Shown piece by piece: positions 2,456 to 23,375 of a stretch of 50,133 nucleotides of DNA (its first letter is position 1; each line of letters starts with the position of its first letter). The notes under the pieces were generated by a model, which ran no database searches, was not told the origin of the DNA, and saw only the letters and a program-made list of their open reading frames with translations. A program made the translations under genes and the position numbers. Source of the stretch: a virus; the IMG/VR virus record IMGVR_UViG_3300045988_134114, positions 1 through 50,133 of that record; one strand, written 5' to 3'.

Positions 2456-3028
2456 ATGAAACTTATTTTATGCGATACAAACGAACGGCTGTGTGCGGCT
2501 TGGAAAAAGAGGTTTGCCGGAGAACCTGACGTCGAAGTCATCCATTCCCGATTCGAAGATGTCGCAGAGTACGACGCGATCGTCAGCCCGGGAAACTCTT
2601 TCGGGCTGATGGACGGAGGCATTGATGCGGCCATTATTGATTATTTTGGCTATGAGCTGATGCAAAGGGTGCAAGCCGAAATCATGGCCCAGTATTGCGG
2701 AGAACAGCCGGTCGGTACGTGTCTGCTGGTCCGTATCGATCATGCCCGGCATTCTGTTTTGGCTCATACGCCGACGATGCGCATACCGCAAAACATCCTG
2801 GGCACGGATAACGTCTATAATGCCATGCGGGCGATGTTAATCGCCGTAAAGCGCAGCGCAGACATAAAAACGGTCTTATGTCCGGGCCTTGGCACCTGCA
2901 CCGGCTGTATGCCGGAAGAGTTGGCCGCGGCGCATATGTATATGGCTTGGCGGAACGTCATGGATCCGCGGCCTATCAGCTGGAAAAATGCCGTAGACAT
3001 TGAGATAGAATTGCGAGGCGCTCCATGA
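2456..3028 (+). CDS. Macro-domain protein (Macro_2-like ADP-ribose binding/processing fold)
   Basis: 190 aa. Motifs AIVSPGNSFGLMDGGIDAAI, AHTPTMRIP, CPGLGTCTGCMP. RBS GGAGCAGGAG upstream. Confidence 0.7.
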   Translation: MKLILCDTNERLCAAWKKRFAGEPDVEVIHSRFEDVAEYDAIVSPGNSFGLMDGGIDAAIIDYFGYELMQRVQAEIMAQYCGEQPVGTCLLVRIDHARHSVLAHTPTMRIPQNILGTDNVYNAMRAMLIAVKRSADIKTVLCPGLGTCTGCMPEELAAAHMYMAWRNVMDPRPISWKNAVDIEIELRGAP

Positions 3029-3486
3029 TGACGGCATTGATGAGCTGGATGCGGAGCCTGATTCCAGTCCAGACAGAAATAGAATGGGGGGCGGTGGCGT
3101 CGGCGGCGGGAGCATTGATTACACATTTTACGGGATGGAGTGATATTCACGAAGCATTGGTCGTCATCATGGCTATAGACTACATTACCGGCATAGCAGC
3201 GGCCTATATCAATCCCAACATGAAACTCAACAGCAAGAAGGGATTCGCTGGCTTTTGTAAGAAAATGGTTATTCTTTGCCTTGTAGCCTTGTCTCACGAG
3301 CTGGATATGGCCCTGGGGCAGTCGACATTGACGCAGCCTTTTGTCGTCTGGTTCTTCATTGCTAATGAAGGACTATCCATACTGGAAAATGCCGGGAAGG
3401 CCGGGCTTCCTATCCCCAAAAAATTAAGAGAAACGCTGGAACAGCTCGCCAGCGAAAAGGAAGAGAAGGGAGAGCGGAAATCATGA
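3025..3486 (+). CDS. Holin (phage_holin_4_1 / TcdE-like family)
   Basis: 153 aa with multiple TM segments. Motif FFIANEGLSILENAGKAGLPIP. ATGA overlap with the upstream gene. Confidence 0.8.
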   Translation: MMTALMSWMRSLIPVQTEIEWGAVASAAGALITHFTGWSDIHEALVVIMAIDYITGIAAAYINPNMKLNSKKGFAGFCKKMVILCLVALSHELDMALGQSTLTQPFVVWFFIANEGLSILENAGKAGLPIPKKLRETLEQLASEKEEKGERKS

Positions 3487-3803
3487 TGTATGAAGGATGC
3501 TTAGATTTCAGTGCAGCACTGGAGGTATTAAAGTCCGGCGGCAAGGTTAGCCGGATAGGCTGGAATGGAAAAGGAATGTTCATTTATTATGTTCCGTCGG
3601 CCTATCATGAGCCAAAAACAGATGCAGGTAAGCACTTGGCCGGAGAAGGCGGAAAGGTGCTATATGGCGGATTTATCGCCATGAAGACAGCTACCGGCGA
3701 AGTGGTTCCATGGCTGGCCAGTCAGACGGATTTGCTGGCCGAAGACTGGTGCGTTTATTTGTTTGGTAGCGAAGAAAAAGCAGTGAAGGGGATTGTGATG
3801 TAA
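3483..3803 (+). CDS. DUF2829-like small protein (same family as the Thoeris anti-defence sponge Tad2)
   Basis: 106 aa. Motifs FSAALEVLKSGGKVSRIGWNGKGMFIYY and SQTDLLAEDWCVY. ATGA overlap with the holin stop. Confidence 0.6.
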   Translation: MMYEGCLDFSAALEVLKSGGKVSRIGWNGKGMFIYYVPSAYHEPKTDAGKHLAGEGGKVLYGGFIAMKTATGEVVPWLASQTDLLAEDWCVYLFGSEEKAVKGIVM

Positions 3804-4954: not shown

Positions 4955-5016
4955 CCGGCGACACCGCTGCCACTCGGCAGTATACGATTATCCTACATAA
5001 AACAGTGCAGACAAAA

Positions 5017-5071
5017 AGAAGGCACGTACTTGGGAATGGATAGTTCCCGGTACGCGCCTTCTTTTTTTTTT
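5017..5071 (+). terminator. Intrinsic terminator closing the lysis operon. It lies between convergent genes
   Basis: GAAGGCACGTAC...GGTACGCGCCTTC stem with an inner GGGAA/TTCCC stem, followed by T10. Confidence 0.7.
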
Positions 5072-5078
5072 GCGTATT

Positions 5079-5930
5079 TTACAAGGTATATTTTTCGATT
5101 GTCAATTTTGGGATTTCAAATAGCTCATGATCATCTACTTCGTAATCTTCCCAGCGGCACGGGATGTCAATGTCGTCCTTTTTAGCTATCTTGATAGCCT
5201 TATTTATTAATGCGGAGTTGCAAACTCCTAAGCTGGATTCGTGCTTAATCCAGTAAAAAAGGGGAACGTACATGCTTCCGTCTGGGCGGGCGATGGCTGC
5301 ATCTGTCTGGAACATATCCAGCATAGCCACTTTCAATTTTTCCGCGTCCTCATCGGAAAAGCCGGTTTTTTGAGCAATGAATGGCGTAATACCCCCAGAA
5401 AATATATACGCTCCATAATCTATCTTGGGAAGGGACATTCCGTAGGTTTCCGAGCCGCGGCCTTCTTCTGTCGTGATATTTCCTGACCGCGTAATCTGAA
5501 TATCACGAATCGTCACGGCATCCAACGAGCGCGCCATAGATATAGTAACGGGACCCTTAACTCCGGAAATCATGGTATTTTTAAAGGGTAACATGGAGAA
5601 TACCATGCCGAAGGCGCGGACATCGAAAAACTCCTGACAGAGAACGGATATAGCTTCCGTTTCTTGCTTTTGGCTGAGTAATTTTCGAACGGCAGGAAGG
5701 CTTGCCCGTTCCTTTACATTCTTACATCCGTCGTCAATGCGGTCATGGGCCTGTAATAAAATTCGTTCCCCGGCGAGTTGCAGCCGATTACGGATTTTTC
5801 TTTTTATGCAAACGTCAGTAATTTCTCCGTAGCCGACATAATCCGTACGGGGGCGATTTTCTAATAGGGGGTCGCCGTTCGGGTTGCACTTCGTAGCGGA
5901 TATGATTCCAATGAAATTGATTTTATTCAT
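5079..5930 (-). CDS. cas7: Solitary Cas7 homologue (Csd2/Csh2/DevR-type, type I-C/I-B-like backbone subunit)
   Basis: 283 aa. N-terminal signature ATKCNPNGDPLLENRPRTD...GEITDVCIKRKIRNRL. Further motifs FFDVRAFG, VKGPVTISMARS, ITRSG, KTGFSDEDAEKL. RBS GAGGAGG and ATGA overlap with the upstream gene. Confidence 0.8.
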   Translation of the reverse strand: MNKINFIGIISATKCNPNGDPLLENRPRTDYVGYGEITDVCIKRKIRNRLQLAGERILLQAHDRIDDGCKNVKERASLPAVRKLLSQKQETEAISVLCQEFFDVRAFGMVFSMLPFKNTMISGVKGPVTISMARSLDAVTIRDIQITRSGNITTEEGRGSETYGMSLPKIDYGAYIFSGGITPFIAQKTGFSDEDAEKLKVAMLDMFQTDAAIARPDGSMYVPLFYWIKHESSLGVCNSALINKAIKIAKKDDIDIPCRWEDYEVDDHELFEIPKLTIEKYTL

Positions 5931-6349
5931 TGTTCTTCCTCCTCGGCAGTAATTTCGCTGTATTCTTTGCTGTTAATTTCGTAGTCAATACTTGTGTCGA
6001 GGCCATATAACAATTCATTTACCAGACGGACACGCTGGACGATATTCAAAGCCTCAATTTTTTTGTATAACTCATTATCTGTAGAGCACCCAAAGTAATC
6101 CAACACATCTAAATGCAAGTCCTTGATTTTTGAAGCGGTGACTTTCGAGCCCCAAAGAATATTATATAGGACTTCTTTTTCTCCGTCGGAAAACTCCGGG
6201 AGAGGTGAGAGCGTCATCAAAATTTGATAGCTGTTGACGATCAGCCCCAGCGCGCGGCTAAAGCCGCCATTTCGACGGCTGTCGGCCTTTGTTTGCTCAG
6301 CAAGCAGTTCTAACGGCTCGTTCATATAAATTTTCTTGACTTTTCCCAT
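5927..6349 (-). CDS. Ribbon-helix-helix-like DNA-binding protein with a helical C-terminal domain and acidic tail (candidate operon regulator)
   Basis: The internal start M62 of ORF 5927..6532 has RBS AGGAGG plus a 7-nt spacer. The N-terminus KKIYMNEPLELLAEQTKADSRRNGGFSRALGLIVNSY fits the RHH strand-helix-GxS-helix pattern. Confidence 0.55.
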   Translation of the reverse strand: MGKVKKIYMNEPLELLAEQTKADSRRNGGFSRALGLIVNSYQILMTLSPLPEFSDGEKEVLYNILWGSKVTASKIKDLHLDVLDYFGCSTDNELYKKIEALNIVQRVRLVNELLYGLDTSIDYEINSKEYSEITAEEEEQ

Positions 6350-6372
6350 ATTGATTCCTCCTATAAAAATAA

Positions 6373-6397
6373 CAAAAAAAGCGGCATTTCTGCCGCT
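6373..6397 (-). terminator. Intrinsic terminator/attenuator between the acidic ORF and the RHH-cas7 pair
   Basis: Minus strand reads AGCGGCAGAAATGCCGCT followed by T7. Confidence 0.6.
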
Positions 6398-6407
6398 TGA
6401 ATACTTA

Positions 6408-6665
6408 CTAATCGTCGACCAGCTGGTCGACTTCTTCCGGGGGCATTTCTTCGCTATAAACTTCGACAGCAAAGAACTTTTTCCCCTCGGCAGAAACCAT
6501 ATCCTCATCGACAGGGTCAGGGATTTCCTCACAACCTAAGTCATCCATAACCTTGTCAAAACCAAGAATATCCCATCGTACTGGGTGTAAACTTTCATCT
6601 ACCCAGCCAAGATATACGTCGTCACCATGGCTATTTCTGCCGAAAACCTTATAAAATTTTCTCAT
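6408..6665 (-). CDS. Small, very acidic protein (85 aa), first gene of the cas7 operon
   Basis: Internal start M10 of ORF 6408..6692 with RBS AAAGGAGG. The C-terminal half is rich in D/E (EEIPDPVDEDM...EEMPPEEVDQLVDD). Confidence 0.55.
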   Translation of the reverse strand: MRKFYKVFGRNSHGDDVYLGWVDESLHPVRWDILGFDKVMDDLGCEEIPDPVDEDMVSAEGKKFFAVEVYSEEMPPEEVDQLVDD

Positions 6666-6729
6666 TTTAATTCCTCCTTTACAGCCTTCCATTGCCGGTA
6701 GCCGTCTTAAGTAGTTTTTCTATATAATT

Positions 6730-6758
6730 ATTATAACACTTTATGGGCATAAAATCAA
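6730..6758 (-). promoter_or_regulatory. Sigma70-type promoter of the cas7 operon (-35 TTGATT at 6758-6753, 17-nt spacer, -10 TATAAT at 6735-6730)
   Basis: Read on the minus strand. Operator 1 fills the spacer. Confidence 0.55.
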
Positions 6759-6797
6759 TAGTTTATGCCCATAAGATTAGTAATTTATGGGCATAAA
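6740..6797. promoter_or_regulatory. Three palindromic operators TTATG(GG/CC)CATAA at 6741-6752, 6763-6774 and 6785-6796, with 22-bp centre-to-centre spacing
   Basis: Exact 12-mers seen in the sequence. Half-sites are TTTATG/CATAAA. Confidence 0.7.
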
Positions 6798-7028
6798 CGA
6801 AAAATAGGTAAAATAAGAGGCAATTACCCCGAGTGTTTTTCTAAGCTGCCTATGCGGCAGACACTCACAAAGATGCACGCCCCGTATATTTAAAATACGA
6901 AATTAAGTAAAGAGTAACGGCCGGGCCGAATGCTAACGGTGATGAAGCTCATACAGCAAAAAGGAAGACGTGTAGGAGTTGGGGAGCAGAGGCAAAAAAC
7001 AGGCAAAAAAAGTTGAAAAAACGAGAAA

Positions 7029-7066
7029 AAAGCGGAAATCCCATATTTGGGAAATCCGCTTTTTTG
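7029..7066. terminator. Bidirectional intrinsic terminator downstream of integrase 2
   Basis: AGCGGA..TCCCA-TAT-TGGGA..TCCGCT hairpin flanked by an A-run and a T-run. Confidence 0.55.
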
Positions 7067-7200
7067 CTGCATTTTTGTGATTTTTGAATCTGTTGAAATG
7101 CCCGGAAATCGTAGTCCTACTTCGAATACAATTCGACGATGAGCCTAGAACCAGCTAAAATAAGCCATTTTATGAGAAAGAGGCAAAAAGCGGGCAAAAA

Positions 7201-8301
7201 TTATTCCAGATCAAAAATATTTTGGATGTTTTGCGCAGCATTTCGGCGCATTTCTTCACTGTAATGGACATACTTTTTGATGACCGTTTCGACGGTATCC
7301 CCTAACAATGCGGCGACCGTTTTTATGTCAACGCCCCTCGCCAGCAATGTAGTTGCATACGTATGCCGTAAGACATGAATCGAGGTATCCGGAAGGACTT
7401 TCTTTATGTGATGGTTTATGATATTTGTCTCGCTGTTTTTTAAATAAAAGATTCGCCCATCCGGGGCTACTGGGAATTTCGCTTCTTTATATTCTGTCAG
7501 GATTCTTTGCAGCGTGATAGGCATAGGAATCGTCCTTTTAGAATTCGACGTCTTTAGTTTCCCTAACTTATATTCGTATGTCTTTTCAGCTGTCCGAAAT
7601 CTTTTAAATTGGCGGATAACCTTTAATTCCTTTTTGTCTAAGTCAATGGAGGCCCATGTCAGCCCGGCAATTTCGCCATAACGCAGTCCGGCATAATATC
7701 CCACCGCAGCCATCACAGAAAGCATGTACTGATTTTCATGCAAGTATGCATATAAGCAATTGAATTCCTTGGTGGAAATCGTCTGGATTTCTTCTTCATT
7801 GATTTCTGGGTAAATGATTCCGTCCATAGGAGACTTTCTCAATAATTCGTAAAATGTGATCGCGTGGCGGATCATTACTTTGAATTTGCTCATGTATAGC
7901 TCAACAGTGGATGCGGAAAGCTTGGATTCATTTACGCAAGTTTGGATATAAGCCCGTGTAAGGTCTGGTAAAGGAATATTACATAAATCCGAAAAGGCAG
8001 CTATTGCGTTTTCATAAACATCTATAGATCCATCCGAAAGCTGCTTTTTCTTATCTATTTGGTAAATGGCCCAAAATTGTTTCAATGTGATATTTTGCAT
8101 AAGAGGGTCGGCGGGTGTCGGGACATAGTTTTCCGCTATTTCTTTTAATAGCTTTTCCCCGGCAGCTTTGGCAAGGCTTTTCTGTGAGAAGCCCTGCTTT
8201 GACTTCTGTTTCCATTTTCCGTCAGCCTTATACGACAGGATAACCTGCCAGCCGGTAGATTTTTTCCGATAATGGAAAGCATGGGGAATCATATCGTCCA
8301 T
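7201..8301 (-). CDS. int: Tyrosine integrase (recombinase 2; sits beside the lysogeny module)
   Basis: Start M24 of ORF 7201..8370 with RBS GAGGAGG. Motifs AGLRYGE, HVLRHTYAT, LLGDT, YVHY. Confidence 0.85.
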   Translation of the reverse strand: MDDMIPHAFHYRKKSTGWQVILSYKADGKWKQKSKQGFSQKSLAKAAGEKLLKEIAENYVPTPADPLMQNITLKQFWAIYQIDKKKQLSDGSIDVYENAIAAFSDLCNIPLPDLTRAYIQTCVNESKLSASTVELYMSKFKVMIRHAITFYELLRKSPMDGIIYPEINEEEIQTISTKEFNCLYAYLHENQYMLSVMAAVGYYAGLRYGEIAGLTWASIDLDKKELKVIRQFKRFRTAEKTYEYKLGKLKTSNSKRTIPMPITLQRILTEYKEAKFPVAPDGRIFYLKNSETNIINHHIKKVLPDTSIHVLRHTYATTLLARGVDIKTVAALLGDTVETVIKKYVHYSEEMRRNAAQNIQNIFDLE

Positions 8302-8549
8302 GACCTTCACCTCCTCACAAAATAAAACAAGTGTTCGGCTCATTGCGTCTAAATTTTCCCCTGCCTGCAAAACGGGCAGGGGATTTTTGCGTATTAAATG
8401 TAGAATTAAATGCAGAAAATGGGATTATTCTGCATTTATCGTCTTAAAGTGAACGATAAATGGAACGATAAAGCGCGCTTTGAACAGCTTCCAAATTGGA
8501 AATAGTTGCGGTTCCCGGCAGTTGTTGCATTTTTTGCAACAACCACTTT

Positions 8550-8933
8550 TTATATCTCCGGCTCATCGGAAGGTTCCGGCAGCTTTTTAGGTTCATCTTC
8601 GGTATTCGTCATATCCGAAGATTCCACAAAATGAGTATGTTTTACTCTCCAGCCGGTCATTTTGTTGAACAGCCAAAAGCCATAGATGCCAAAGGTAATA
8701 ATGGTGAAGAACCACCATTTGATATAGCTGCCGAATAGTTGCAGTCCTGTTCCATCGAAGTATAGTTGTCTGCCGTCAATGAAGGTATTCCGGCATATCC
8801 AGCGTTGGAATATGACGGATCCCCACGGATAGGCGAGGCCCAACGTACATACGGTTATTAAAAATGCGAGTAGGCCATACCCGATAAAGCCGAATATAGA
8901 ACCTGTAAATTTGGATTCGTTTGAGAAAATCAT
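8550..8933 (-). CDS. Multi-pass membrane protein, DUF898/YjgN-like
   Basis: 127 aa. Motifs LITVCTLGLAYPWG and FFTIITFGIYGFW. Last gene of the repressor operon. Confidence 0.5.
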   Translation of the reverse strand: MIFSNESKFTGSIFGFIGYGLLAFLITVCTLGLAYPWGSVIFQRWICRNTFIDGRQLYFDGTGLQLFGSYIKWWFFTIITFGIYGFWLFNKMTGWRVKHTHFVESSDMTNTEDEPKKLPEPSDEPEI

Positions 8934-8947
8934 ATTTTATCACCTTT

Positions 8948-9511
8948 TTAGAATAAGCCACCTAAACCGCTGAGGACAGCCCCGGCAATTCGATTATTCC
9001 GCTCTCTGCGTTTTTCCGATTCTGCTTTTTCTTCGGCTTCCTTCTTTTTCTTTTCTTGTTCTTTCAGCCGTTCTTCTTGCTGGGCTTTATACTCGGCAAG
9101 TTTGGCGTCACGACCAGCAAGGATAGCAGAAGTATTTTTCACAGCTTCTCCCAATGTATCGGGACGAATTTCTATGGTTTTGGTTTCTGGTATTTCTATG
9201 TATGTAGAATCATTATCATAAAAATATTTTATAGTGTTAGAATGGCAAAGGGTATTACGAGCATAGTTTATGGAAACCTTTGATACGTAATAGCACCTAT
9301 CAGCCGGGTATGCTGATGTCACGTAAAACATTGCTGTATCAGTAGACGGATTATATTCTAAAGATTTTGTGTTAATGTACATTGTAACGGTACTGTTGGA
9401 AGTAACCCAATACAGGTTAGGGTTTTTACTAAAGTCTTGGGCCACTGATATGTTAAAAAACATGAAAACAGCACATAGAATAAAGAAAATTCGCTTAATC
9501 ATTATCATCAT
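8948..9511 (-). CDS. Secreted or membrane-anchored protein with a signal peptide, K/E-rich coiled coil and hydrophobic C-terminus
   Basis: N-terminus MMIMIKRIFFILCAVFMFFNISVAQD. C-terminus ...KKKKEAEEKAESEKRRERNNRIAGAVLSGLGGLF. Confidence 0.55.
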   Translation of the reverse strand: MMIMIKRIFFILCAVFMFFNISVAQDFSKNPNLYWVTSNSTVTMYINTKSLEYNPSTDTAMFYVTSAYPADRCYYVSKVSINYARNTLCHSNTIKYFYDNDSTYIEIPETKTIEIRPDTLGEAVKNTSAILAGRDAKLAEYKAQQEERLKEQEKKKKEAEEKAESEKRRERNNRIAGAVLSGLGGLF

Positions 9512-9555: not shown

Positions 9556-10656
9556 CTAGTTATCTTTTGGCAATAACGAATTTAAACGAGCAATTAAAGC
9601 ATCAGATAAGTTATAGATATCATCGACCGTTTCAAAGTCATAACGTGTACTTTCCTCTCCATTTTTTATGATTACATATTTAGCGCGTTCTTTAATATAG
9701 ATACGGCAAATCCATTTTGTTGTTTTATTATCCAAATTTATAGCGAAATATGTTTCTTTGTCGGTATATGTTATTCTATCTGGCGGTACTTGAGTTCTCA
9801 AAATAGATTTAACTACATAGAAGGAATCAAGTTCTTCTTGAGTTGTTATGATCTTAGATACAGGGGCATCATCTGTATCGGAATCAGAGGTGATAGAATT
9901 TGATTGAGATGTCGCTGGGGTAGTATCCGTTTCGGAATCCTCATTTTTAGCTAAGGCATTTTTTAGACGATCATTAATCATTTCTGTTATGACCAAACTG
10001 ATGGAGCGTTTTACAAGCGGCTGATATTTTTCTACAATGCTTTGTGTTTTTACTCCTTCATATACACCTCGATTTAGAATCAGGCGGACGAGATCGTCAC
10101 TTGGATTTGCAAATTCATCTTTAAGAATTTGTCGTATTTGACCCATATATTTCAATTCTGCGGCAGAATCAAAAATTTCGTCTTTATCAAAGTTTTCCTT
10201 TGTGAATTTTTGTAGCTCTTGGATTTGGTAGTCCTTTAAGTTCAATAAGTTGATTTCAAGGAAAGGCGCTTCGTCCATTTTGTTGGTTTCTTCAATATCC
10301 GTATAAAAACGATATATGATACCATTGGTTAAAATAGCGAATTTGGCGTCAGTTGTTCCAAAATATCTGAAGAGTTGGGAATCATGCTTATCTAAGTTTT
10401 CAGAAATACTTTTGCACTCAACAAGTATCATAGGGCTATTGTTGATTAAGATTGCATAGTCTACCTTTTCGCCTTTTTTTATTCCAACATCGGCAGTAAA
10501 TTCCGGTACAAATTCATTGGGATTAAAAATGTCATAGCCCATAGCTTGGAAGAAGGGCATAATTAAAGAGGTTTTTGTTGCTTCCTCGGTTGAAATATTA
10601 TCTTTCAAGCTTTCAATTCTGCTTTTAAATGAAGTTATTTTTTCCTCGAATGTCAT
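9556..10656 (-). CDS. PD-(D/E)xK nuclease-fold protein with a type I restriction HsdR N-terminal-like domain (HSDR_N_2-like)
   Basis: 366 aa. Motifs ATKTSLIMPFFQAMGYD, KVDYAILINNSPMILVECKS, FAILTNGIIYRFY. Confidence 0.6.
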   Translation of the reverse strand: MTFEEKITSFKSRIESLKDNISTEEATKTSLIMPFFQAMGYDIFNPNEFVPEFTADVGIKKGEKVDYAILINNSPMILVECKSISENLDKHDSQLFRYFGTTDAKFAILTNGIIYRFYTDIEETNKMDEAPFLEINLLNLKDYQIQELQKFTKENFDKDEIFDSAAELKYMGQIRQILKDEFANPSDDLVRLILNRGVYEGVKTQSIVEKYQPLVKRSISLVITEMINDRLKNALAKNEDSETDTTPATSQSNSITSDSDTDDAPVSKIITTQEELDSFYVVKSILRTQVPPDRITYTDKETYFAINLDNKTTKWICRIYIKERAKYVIIKNGEESTRYDFETVDDIYNLSDALIARLNSLLPKDN

Positions 10657-23278: not shown

Positions 23279-23375
23279 GGATGGTTGGCCGAGAGGCTTA
23301 AGGCATCAGTTTGCTAAATTGACTTACGCTGGGCGGCGCCCCGTAACGCAGGTTCGAATCCTGCACCATCCGCCA
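23279..23375 (+). tRNA. tRNA-Ser (anticodon GCU), type II with long variable arm, CCA encoded
   Basis: Hand fold. Acceptor GGATGGT/ACCATCC. D stem GCC/GGC. Anticodon stem TCAGT/ATTGA with loop TTGCTAA. 25-nt variable arm. T arm GCAGG-TTCGAAT-CCTGC. Discriminator G plus CCA. Confidence 0.8.

Follow-up and report, generated by a model that had tools for sequence, protein, structure and literature searches.

A solitary viral cas7 and its operon

We analysed a window of 50,133 nucleotides of viral DNA (IMG/VR record IMGVR_UViG_3300045988_134114), in which a gene for the CRISPR-Cas backbone protein Cas7 closes a short operon at the edge of a prophage. The open reading frame (ORF) at 5079-5930 (minus strand) encodes 283 amino acids (aa), and its product was matched by Pfam PF05107 (Cas_Cas7; E 2.2e-66, profile positions 1-247 of 249), by NCBIfam TIGR02589 (type I-C Cas7/Csd2; 240 bits, the curated cutoff being 182.25; residues 3-272) and by the PADLOC Cas7c model (E 2e-72). 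The solved type I-C Cas7 chains 8g9s and 7kha in the Protein Data Bank (PDB) also matched it, at an E-value of about 1e-31. These profile matches identify the product unambiguously as a full-length type I-C Cas7/Csd2, which upholds the identity proposed in an earlier note on this DNA, and we refer to it below as viral Cas7 (vCas7).

The cas7 gene is the last of three in a minus-strand operon, which was found as the earlier note had described it: a gene for an acidic 85-aa protein is followed by an intrinsic terminator and by a gene for a 140-aa protein with a ribbon-helix-helix (RHH)-like N-terminus (5927-6349, minus strand), the stop codon of which overlaps the cas7 start codon by 4 bp (ATGA, 5927-5930). 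As shown in the next section, this 140-aa partner is related to the anti-CRISPR (Acr) protein AcrIE10.

The same note had held that the cas7 gene stands alone, and the searches of the 50-kb window confirmed this. When stop-to-stop ORFs of at least 40 aa from all six frames of the entire window were searched by phmmer with 16 Cas3, Cas5c, Cas8c, Cas4, Cas1 and Cas2 queries from four genuine type I-C operons, no match was obtained, and the PADLOC defence models matched Cas7 alone. Tandem Repeats Finder (TRF) detected no CRISPR array in the window, and an Rfam scan of it gave no match to a CRISPR direct repeat (CRISPR-DR), only a tRNA in mid-genome (RF00005, 54 bits, 23279-23372). A solitary type I-C repeat or RNA anti-CRISPR in the window was considered and rejected, as a search with three real type I-C repeat consensuses (up to 10 mismatches) and with the 3′ handle (up to 2 mismatches) found no full repeat; four handle-like 12-mers were present, none of them with a matching full repeat. 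The real type I-C operons at loci L045 and L046 (L numbers denote the loci compared here) show the expected cas3-cas5c-cas8c-cas7-cas4-cas1-cas2 order and arrays, whereas the window does not.

The viral cas7 is under purifying selection, with a ratio of non-synonymous to synonymous substitution rates (dN/dS) of 0.07-0.17, and in none of the nine full-length loci examined is its ORF interrupted or shortened. These results bear on the possibility that the gene is a functionless leftover of a captured cas operon, or else a subunit serving a phage-borne CRISPR RNA (crRNA). A truncated cas7 copy in another phage lineage (described below) and the presence of whole type I-C operons on some IMG/VR viral contigs (L048-L056) would be in keeping with it; the low dN/dS, the nine intact ORFs and the lack of repeats, arrays and further cas genes in the window speak against it. 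A remnant is essentially excluded by the selection analysis, which bears out the earlier note's argument against one, and we regard this explanation as very improbable.

Among 113 ordinary Cas7c proteins, 137 positions are at least 90% conserved, and 75 of these are unchanged in all five partner-linked copies, in which cas7 lies beside a relative of the 140-aa gene. The conserved positions that are kept are scattered over the whole protein, without being confined to a single segment. Derived changes common to the partner-linked vCas7s are N23L, W101F, A112S, F113M, K114L, M163Y/L, Q184F/V/L, L185I/F, E187Q/T and K241L/A, so that two conserved lysines (K114L and K241L/A) are replaced; by our own count from the conservation table, the majority of the conserved basic residues of the family are still present.

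The operon is preceded by a promoter of the sigma-70 type (TTGATT-17-TATAAT with a TG extension, 6730-6758, minus strand), which has 10 of 12 matches and is invariant across the cassette copies. As the earlier note had claimed, this consensus-like promoter lies amid three palindromic operators (TTTATG-GG/CC-CATAAA, with 6-bp arms, a 2-bp centre and a 22-bp spacing, 6740-6797), which were detected both by TRF (period 22) and by a repeat finder. The promoter-proximal palindrome (14 bp) occupies the spacer between the -35 and -10 elements. The palindromes are kept in L006, L010, L011 (two copies) and L015, and more distant AcrIE10-like loci have different palindromes at the same place.

Between the promoter and the first gene lies a conserved 5′ leader (6666-6712, minus strand), recognised from RNA folds and from the comparison of cassettes. 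It combines a CTTAAG motif with a hairpin in two tiers, which adjoins the Shine-Dalgarno sequence. In other AcrIE10-like operons (L008 3474-3524, L029 4505-4562, L042 4339-4393 and others), the leader likewise has a CTTrAG/ACTGAG motif and, after it, a two-tier hairpin at the Shine-Dalgarno sequence; many of these loci also have a first hairpin, GGAAGG...CCTTCC. The stems vary in sequence from one lineage to another, as covariation would lead one to expect; RNAalifold found no consensus structure in a MAFFT alignment of 14 leader sequences, and the hairpin is known from single-sequence folds. It could be a translational control element like the mRNA site of the anti-CRISPR-associated (Aca) protein Aca2.

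The first gene (6408-6665, minus strand) encodes an orphan protein of 85 aa with an isoelectric point of 4.16 and 23 Asp and Glu residues, which is a candidate for the primary anti-CRISPR of the operon. It had no Pfam, NCBIfam, PADLOC, PHROG or PDB match, and a search of 1.8 billion representatives of 50%-identity clusters yielded homologues in a single further cluster. A single-sequence AlphaFold2 (AF2) model was of low confidence (pLDDT 61), too poor for a structure search. In sister cassettes, the 85-aa gene is replaced or accompanied by a 73-aa gene. In L011, the unit of promoter, operators and leader is repeated before successive small genes (8840-8920, 9256-9328 and 9584-9734; two 85-aa copies and one 73-aa gene), which makes this region a modular array of promoter plus small gene upstream of the AcrIE10-like gene.

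An internal intrinsic terminator or attenuator (6369-6398, minus strand), which has an 8-pair stem with 5 GC pairs and a U-run (-14.3 kcal/mol, z -3.65), separates the 85-aa gene from the AcrIE10-like one. The operon is closed by a hairpin with a U-run (5011-5059, minus strand; -22.3 kcal/mol, z -5.8), which is bidirectional, with an A-run on its other side.

The 140-aa partner and AcrIE10

The 140-aa partner had no Pfam, NCBIfam or PADLOC match, and among the PHROG families only phrog_14350, of unknown function, was matched. An iterated search placed it in a widespread family of Firmicute (pro)phage proteins of about 115 aa (85 hits), with members in prophages of Streptococcus pyogenes, S. 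equi and S. agalactiae, in phages of Paenibacillus larvae and in Sporomusa. The partner gene is itself under purifying selection, with a dN/dS of about 0.1.

An AF2 model of the partner, built with 60 family members, reached a pLDDT of 81.9 and a predicted template-modelling score (pTM) of 0.71. It shows helices at residues 11-19 and 30-46, which correspond to the RHH, and five further helices over residues 55-115; the strand region at 5-10 is coil in the monomer, and an acidic tail (126-140) is disordered. When this model was compared with the PDB by Foldseek, the four best matches were all AcrIE10 (9m7t, the DNA complex; 9m71, the apo form; 8ji9, the Cas7 complex), at a probability of 1.00, template-modelling (TM) scores of 0.57/0.68 and 23% identity, and the next match had an E-value above 2. 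Sequence profiles gave the same answer, since a profile of 60 family sequences matched the AcrIE10 chains at E 1.4e-8 to 2.2e-8 (38 bits, positions 18-115 of 116), and the next PDB sequence followed at E 0.23. In our reading of the alignment, G67-S68 of the partner correspond to G64-S65 of AcrIE10, and the acidic residue D81 lies at the position of E78. A Foldseek search of the viral BFVD library with the same model gave nothing significant.

The partner is thus, by family profile and predicted fold, a homologue of AcrIE10 in which an N-terminal RHH is followed by a C-terminal domain of five helices and then by a disordered acidic tail. The RHH-like N-terminus noticed earlier was borne out by both the model and the homology. 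The acr-aca-like character of the operon, also proposed at that time, proved real and can be refined, as the 140-aa protein is an Acr-Aca homologue of the AcrIE10 type and hence more than a mere Aca. A different suggestion of the earlier note, that the helical C-terminal part of the protein is a Cas11-like partner of Cas7, had to be abandoned, because no similarity to Cas8c or Cas11c was found by sequence or fold: phmmer (--max) against four Cas8c sequences gave E-values above 0.7 and scores of at most about 0.3 bits, and none of the 45 PDB hits of the partner in Foldseek was a type I-C Cascade entry or a Cas11 chain.

AcrIE10, characterised by Jiang (2024, NAR) and Tsui (2026, Nat Commun), is an anti-CRISPR from Klebsiella plasmids that has been shown to bind type I-E Cas7. 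Its C-terminal helix bundle fills the positively charged crRNA groove of free Cas7 and thereby blocks Cas7-Cas7 stacking, Cascade assembly and crRNA loading, with E78 being essential (PMC11317147). AcrIE10 is also an Aca, as the RHH at its N-terminus represses its own promoter by binding to an inverted repeat across the -35 and -10 elements; the dimer of dimers on DNA needs a 2-bp spacer, and the operon has the order acrIE9.2 (a small primary Acr), then acrIE10 (PMC13530269). The effect of Cas7 on DNA binding by AcrIE10 is biphasic, low Cas7 leading to a stable ternary complex and excess Cas7 to release of the DNA and de-repression (PMC13530269). Homologues of AcrIE10 in Firmicutes and prophages were noted by Jiang et al., and the passages of their paper considered here make no mention of a linkage to cas7.

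In summary, the 140-aa protein is very probably the autoregulator of the operon, and its homology to an anti-CRISPR that binds the Cas7 groove provides a concrete physical rationale for its pairing with a cas7 gene.

Occurrence of the pair and its possible function

The close clade of the window Cas7 is small, with members at 100, 89, 86 and 75% identity, after which identity drops to about 50% against ordinary Cas7c. One such ordinary relative (P0006, 49% identity) lies in a normal cas8c-cas7-cas4-cas1-cas2 operon with an array. The partner and cas7 genes were found adjacent in three diverged lineages, namely, the window clade (4-bp overlap), L002 (12-nt gap) and L007 (8-nt overlap), and in L007, which forms the deepest pair with the window, Cas7 is 51% and the partner 35% identical. 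In a neighbour-joining tree, the partner-linked Cas7s form one clade inside the Cas7c diversity. From these sequence comparisons, we conclude that the linkage of Cas7 and partner is old and selected.

Further searches were negative within their scopes. A nucleotide search of GenBank phages with the cassette region gave no match, and tblastn of GenBank phages with Cas7 gave only four unannotated gut contigs (26-34% identity). Nothing was found in scans of genome contigs with Cas7 and with the 140-aa partner, nor in scans of viral contigs for Cas7s of the L002 and L007 types.

A second, independent clade of solo Cas7c proteins (L058-L068), of about 301 aa and 36-40% identity to the window protein, is encoded beside lysis genes in phages for which IMG/VR predicts hosts mainly among the Lachnospiraceae. 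These loci have no AcrIE10-like partner, and their Cas7c proteins retain the ordinary residues where the partner-linked vCas7s have changed. A conserved acidic protein of 84 aa precedes the solo Cas7c in L058 and L061 (L061 1125-1379, with cas7 at 1706-2611); it was not seen in L059, L063, L065 or L067.

Several observations converge on the host. The 140-aa protein is identical to a Megasphaera stantonii protein (AXL21883.1/WP_107196559.1), the holin, amidase and capsid clusters of the phage carry M. stantonii and M. butyrica names, and the M. stantonii chromosome CP029462 has the same three genes at a prophage edge, directly after host rpsD. The window also matches a third-party-annotation 'Caudoviricetes sp.' metagenome-assembled genome in GenBank, the Cas7 of which is DAI65674.1. 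By these sequence matches, the host genus of the phage is Megasphaera. M. elsdenii has been described as having a type I-C system, 85 self-targeting spacers directed at prophages and no recognisable Acr (PMC7708048).

We favour, with a confidence that stays slightly short of even, the view that the cassette of 2.1 kb (about 5011-7065) regulates itself and serves as an anti-CRISPR locus directed against the Cas7 backbone of the host type I-C Cascade, in which vCas7 would be the cognate ligand of the partner and the two would work as one unit. By analogy with AcrIE10, the 140-aa protein would dimerise through its RHH, sit on the TTTATGssCATAAA operators and repress the operon, and its acidic helix bundle would plug the crRNA groove of Cas7c monomers and stop Cas7-Cas7 stacking and crRNA loading. 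By homology and anatomy, the strong, operator-overlapped promoter drives the gene of the fast-evolving acidic 85-aa protein, and readthrough of the leaky terminator extends to the AcrIE10-like gene and then to the coupled viral cas7; the terminator would hold the levels of the Acr-Aca and Cas7 below that of the small acidic protein. In type I-C, Cascade is built by the cooperative stacking of seven Cas7 subunits on a Cas5c-crRNA nucleus (PMC7684278). If vCas7 is the ligand of the Acr domain of the partner, which is what we prefer, a groove-capped Cas7 would still offer its other faces to assemblies of Cas5c, Cas7 and crRNA and might act either as a decoy or as a chain-terminating subunit, much as AcrIB3, a Cas5 homologue, joins the type I-B Cascade and disables it. 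The ratio of Cas7 to partner may then set the occupancy of the promoter, leaving the prophage poised to de-repress the operon when host Cas7c rises.

Several features of the data were counted in favour of this view, beginning with the identities of the two proteins and the purifying selection on both genes. The grammar of the locus (a small orphan gene, an Acr-Aca homologue and palindromes with a 2-bp centre) matches that of acrIE9.2-acrIE10, and the clade-specific changes at invariant Cas7 positions together with the deep and tight coupling weigh for a physical relationship. The placement at the prophage edge, where the cassette has a promoter and terminators to itself, suits expression in lysogens facing type I-C self-targeting. 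The type I-C system of M. elsdenii, the neighbouring genes of an anti-defence character (Tad2-like and Macro) and the precedent of AcrIB3 and AcrIB4, viral Cas homologues that serve as Acrs by entry into Cascade, were also counted for it.

Other observations weigh against it. The partner family is mostly cas7-less, none of the 28 other IMG/VR loci having a Cas7. In the SU10-like lineage L010-L015, cas7 is cut after about codon 41-46, which leaves an ORF of 54-55 aa, and the constraint on the partner is unchanged, indicating that the partner does not need the viral Cas7; this truncated lineage weighs against an obligate complex, as does the occurrence of each gene alone. The known target of AcrIE10 is a type I-E Cas7, only distantly related to Cas7c, and the published Megasphaera type I-C system is that of M. 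elsdenii, whereas the cassette-bearing chromosome is that of M. stantonii. Lastly, a ligand made together with the Acr domain would be expected to titrate it, and this seems self-defeating unless the complex itself is the active species. Taken together, the sequence evidence indicates that selection maintains the viral Cas7 in the phages that have it, yet that the partner can do without it.

The SU10-like phages, which are unrelated to that of the window and widespread, carry the cassette between early genes and terminase, with the same promoter and operators, the 85-aa and/or 73-aa gene and a partner of 85-92% identity. The homology of their truncated cas7 ends at window positions 5793-5808, such that the N-terminal 41 aa are kept and followed by ILPQQEQR and a stop codon. 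Examples of the truncated ORF are L010 10432-10596 and L015 10423-10590, and since 43 blocks of the collection contain the partner cluster, the truncated form is common.

The cas7-less AcrIE10-like loci have a Zn-ribbon or HNH-like gene downstream instead, which usually overlaps by about 4 bp. Examples of the Zn-ribbon gene are L008 4345-4719, L035 5341-5847, L042 5330-5866 and L019 5354-5851. Two Cys-rich types were seen, one with the motif RTCRQCxxxFxGGPRAxYCPxCR and one with GYWTVI..RCRCICGKEK..SCGC, the latter matching HNH-endonuclease PHROGs, and a copy of the RTCRQC-type Zn-ribbon lies just upstream of the cassette in L010 (9125-9541, minus strand).

The persistence of the cassette with a truncated cas7 is what would be expected if the viral Cas7 were a tuning part only, which never touches Cascade and adjusts the AcrIE10-like sensor-repressor as a built-in co-repressor or inducer, thereby setting the operating point of the operon as conditional cooperativity does in toxin-antitoxin operons, and leaving the anti-CRISPR work to the 85- and 73-aa proteins and the Acr domain of the partner. 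The biphasic, stoichiometry-dependent effect of Cas7 on DNA binding by AcrIE10 (PMC13530269) fits such a role, as do the translational coupling, which fixes the ratio of partner to Cas7, the order of RHH gene first and ligand gene second with a 4-bp overlap, typical of a classical autoregulated pair, and the duplication of the promoter-operator unit before each small gene in L011. However, strong purifying selection acts on all 283 residues, the 75 of 137 conserved positions kept along the whole protein exceed what a ligand surface needs, and the partner-less solo Cas7c clades in other phages argue for a function of viral Cas7 in its own right. We consider a purely regulatory ligand plausible, though rather less than likely.

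The titration argument would lose its force if an obligate heterocomplex of partner and vCas7 were itself the weapon, which we think doubtful. A Cas7 subunit with its crRNA groove already capped by the Acr would dock onto nascent assemblies of Cas5c, Cas7 and crRNA, end the growth of the backbone and poison Cascade sub-stoichiometrically, with one capped subunit per Cascade in place of the titration of seven Cas7 subunits, and the same complex would serve as co-repressor of the operon. If this were true, the cassette would form a circuit complete in itself, sensing host Cas7c by a kind of conditional cooperativity, and an Acr and a stolen copy of its target would be co-evolving as a module.

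The comparison of the window with L001 showed identical partner genes (synonymous divergence, dS, 0.01) next to cas7 genes with an 11% protein difference (dS 0.40), which implies recombination within the cassette, with a breakpoint at or near the ATGA junction. That the pair tolerates such reshuffling, and that each gene is found elsewhere without the other, would suit two independent anti-type I-C genes that merely share an operon, the partner blocking host Cas7c and vCas7 evading the partner to act as a defective subunit or crRNA sponge; the clade-specific replacements of vCas7, including K114L and K241L/A, could then be escape changes at the Acr-binding groove. On the other hand, the tight coupling is kept across deep divergence in three lineages, and the vCas7s keep most of the conserved basic residues of the family. 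Independence of the two genes is, in our judgement, unlikely. The available data do not separate the cognate-ligand unit that we prefer from this explanation or from the purely regulatory ligand.

The upstream RHH autorepressor, the 4-bp overlap and the acidic C-terminal tail on the upstream protein are also the grammar of a type II toxin-antitoxin (TA) operon, and this, with the position at a prophage edge, was counted for a TA, abortive-infection or superinfection-exclusion module. Free vCas7 would in that case be harmful, e.g., by coating RNA, with the RHH protein as its antitoxin; in a variant, the Cas7 of the prophage would soak up incoming Cas7-binding Acrs and so protect the CRISPR system of the host. 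This is quite improbable, as the upstream protein has an anti-CRISPR, and no antitoxin, for its nearest characterised relative, solo Cas7c occurs in other phages without this partner, truncation drops the 'toxin' with the constraint on the 'antitoxin' unchanged, and the PADLOC defence models match Cas7 alone and not the partner.

Prophage setting and comparison with known systems

The phage is temperate and myovirus-like, with integrase, CI-like repressor, sheath and baseplate genes. The homology of the CP029462 locus (L081) begins at window position 7143 and takes in the last 27 nt of rpsD, the end of which at L081 9233 corresponds to window 7117, placing the attP core, a copy of these 27 nt, at about 7117-7143 (minus strand). 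The integrase gene (7201-8370, minus strand) lies just beyond it, and the position at a prophage edge next to int and a putative attP, as read earlier from the window, is borne out by this junction. The phage integrates into the 3′ end of rpsD and brings a replacement 3′ end and terminator. As the phage carries the rpsD 3′ end, the strong hairpin with a U-run at 7026-7065 (minus strand; inverted repeat, -26.1 kcal/mol, z -5.5) serves to end the reconstituted rpsD and to insulate the cassette. The stretch 6963-7100, which includes this terminator hairpin, is 96-99% identical in the SU10-like copies of the cassette (L010 8947-9084, L015 9463-9572), and in L015 an rpsD 3′-end motif, TTGTACTCCAAGTAG, lies upstream of it. 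The cassette therefore seems to have moved together with the prophage end.

On one flank of the cassette, the lysis module is interleaved with Macro-domain and Tad2-like genes, and on the other lie the integrase, an HSDR_N/PD-(D/E)XK protein and a CI-like S24 repressor. The Macro-domain (PF01661/PF14519) and Tad2-like (PF11195, Thoeris anti-defence 2) genes, at 2456-3028 and 3483-3803 among the holin and amidase genes, are 1.3-2.6 kb from the viral Cas7, and with them the region from tail to integrase resembles an anti-defence island. The HSDR_N/PD-(D/E)XK domain forms the N-terminus of a 366-aa protein (9556-10656, minus strand), encoded between the CI-like repressor and the integrase, which carries the NCBI name 'type I restriction endonuclease [Megasphaera butyrica]' and is a possible prophage defence or exclusion gene.

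Two ideas meet in this operon, the use of stolen cas genes as anti-CRISPRs and the sensing of the abundance of a Cas target by an Acr-Aca, since the phage encodes an AcrIE10-like sensor-inhibitor plus a copy of the protein sensed, Cas7. The locus may be described, from its sequence and by analogy, as an acr-aca locus of the AcrIE10 type that would have acquired a copy of the protein bound by its regulator-inhibitor. The AcrIE10 family, known from enterobacterial type I-E systems, would thereby extend to a large unannotated group of Firmicute prophage proteins of about 115 aa (phrog_14350). A joint action of the pair, if real, would represent a new logic of inhibition or regulation for class 1 systems and a ready-made small off-switch directed at type I-C, a type employed in large-deletion genome editing. 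The cassette is also a candidate answer to how Megasphaera lysogens survive dozens of type I-C self-targeting spacers without a known Acr (PMC7708048).

The nearest precedents are the orphan viral cas genes of Katz et al. (10.1101/2023.06.24.545427), who found that AcrIB3, a Cas5 homologue, and AcrIB4, a homologue of the Cas8b C-terminus, both from Listeria prophages, inhibit type I-B, that AcrIB3 is built into the Cascade complex and that AcrVIA2, a Cas3 homologue, inhibits type VI-A. Their catalogue lists 358 orphan viral cas genes as anti-CRISPR candidates, about ten of them type I-C cas7 genes in Clostridia phages (Table S3, 10.1101/2023.06.24.545427). The statement in the earlier note that no phage system built around a solo Cas7 had been described therefore has to be qualified, as orphan viral cas7 genes are already in that table; no cas7 homologue was among the candidates assayed there (10.1101/2023.06.24.545427). 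Four type I-C cas7 loci of Table S3 (L058, L060, L065 and L067) were recovered independently here, and the Megasphaera clade and its IMG/VR relative UViG_2841202678_000002 were not found in that table. The window locus resembles the orphan viral cas Acrs in having a Cas homologue in a temperate phage, without an array or cas operon, beside anti-defence genes and in a separate clade, and differs in that no described case has its Cas homologue linked to an Acr whose binding partner is that same protein. The class of solo viral Cas7 as a putative Acr is thus already known, and we found no publication in which a viral Cas7 is described as coupled to an Acr-Aca that binds Cas7.

Compared with type I-C Cas7/Csd2 proteins (Desulfovibrio vulgaris 7kha, Neisseria lactamica 8g9s), the window protein is full length, above the cutoff and keeps most invariant motifs, and it is 45-51% identical to the operon-encoded Cas7c of Clostridia. 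It differs from them in being solitary, without Cas5c, Cas8c, Cas3 or an array, and in the invariant residues replaced in its clade. With type II TA operons that have RHH antitoxins, the locus shares the upstream gene for an RHH autorepressor and its 4-bp overlap with the ligand gene and, through AcrIE10, the control of operator binding by the ratio of ligand to repressor; in contrast to these, the characterised relative of the partner is an anti-CRISPR, and toxicity of vCas7 is purely hypothetical.

The closest likeness is to AcrIE10 itself. The partner shares with it the RHH N-terminus, the fold of the five-helix domain and a significant profile similarity, is likewise the second gene after a small Acr candidate, as in acrIE9.2-acrIE10, and belongs to an operon in which, as there, an inverted repeat whose centre measures 2 bp overlaps the promoter; Cas7, on which AcrIE10 acts, is encoded by the adjoining gene in the window. 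The differences are that identity is about 23%, that the window partner has the extra acidic tail (126-140), that AcrIE10 comes from an enterobacterial plasmid and the window protein from a prophage of a Firmicute (Negativicutes), that the target of AcrIE10 is a type I-E Cas7 and the presumptive target here, by analogy, a type I-C Cas7, that the window has three operators at 22-bp spacing, and that AcrIE10 loci have no reported cas7 gene, whereas here the copy of Cas7 is coupled directly to the gene of its putative binder.

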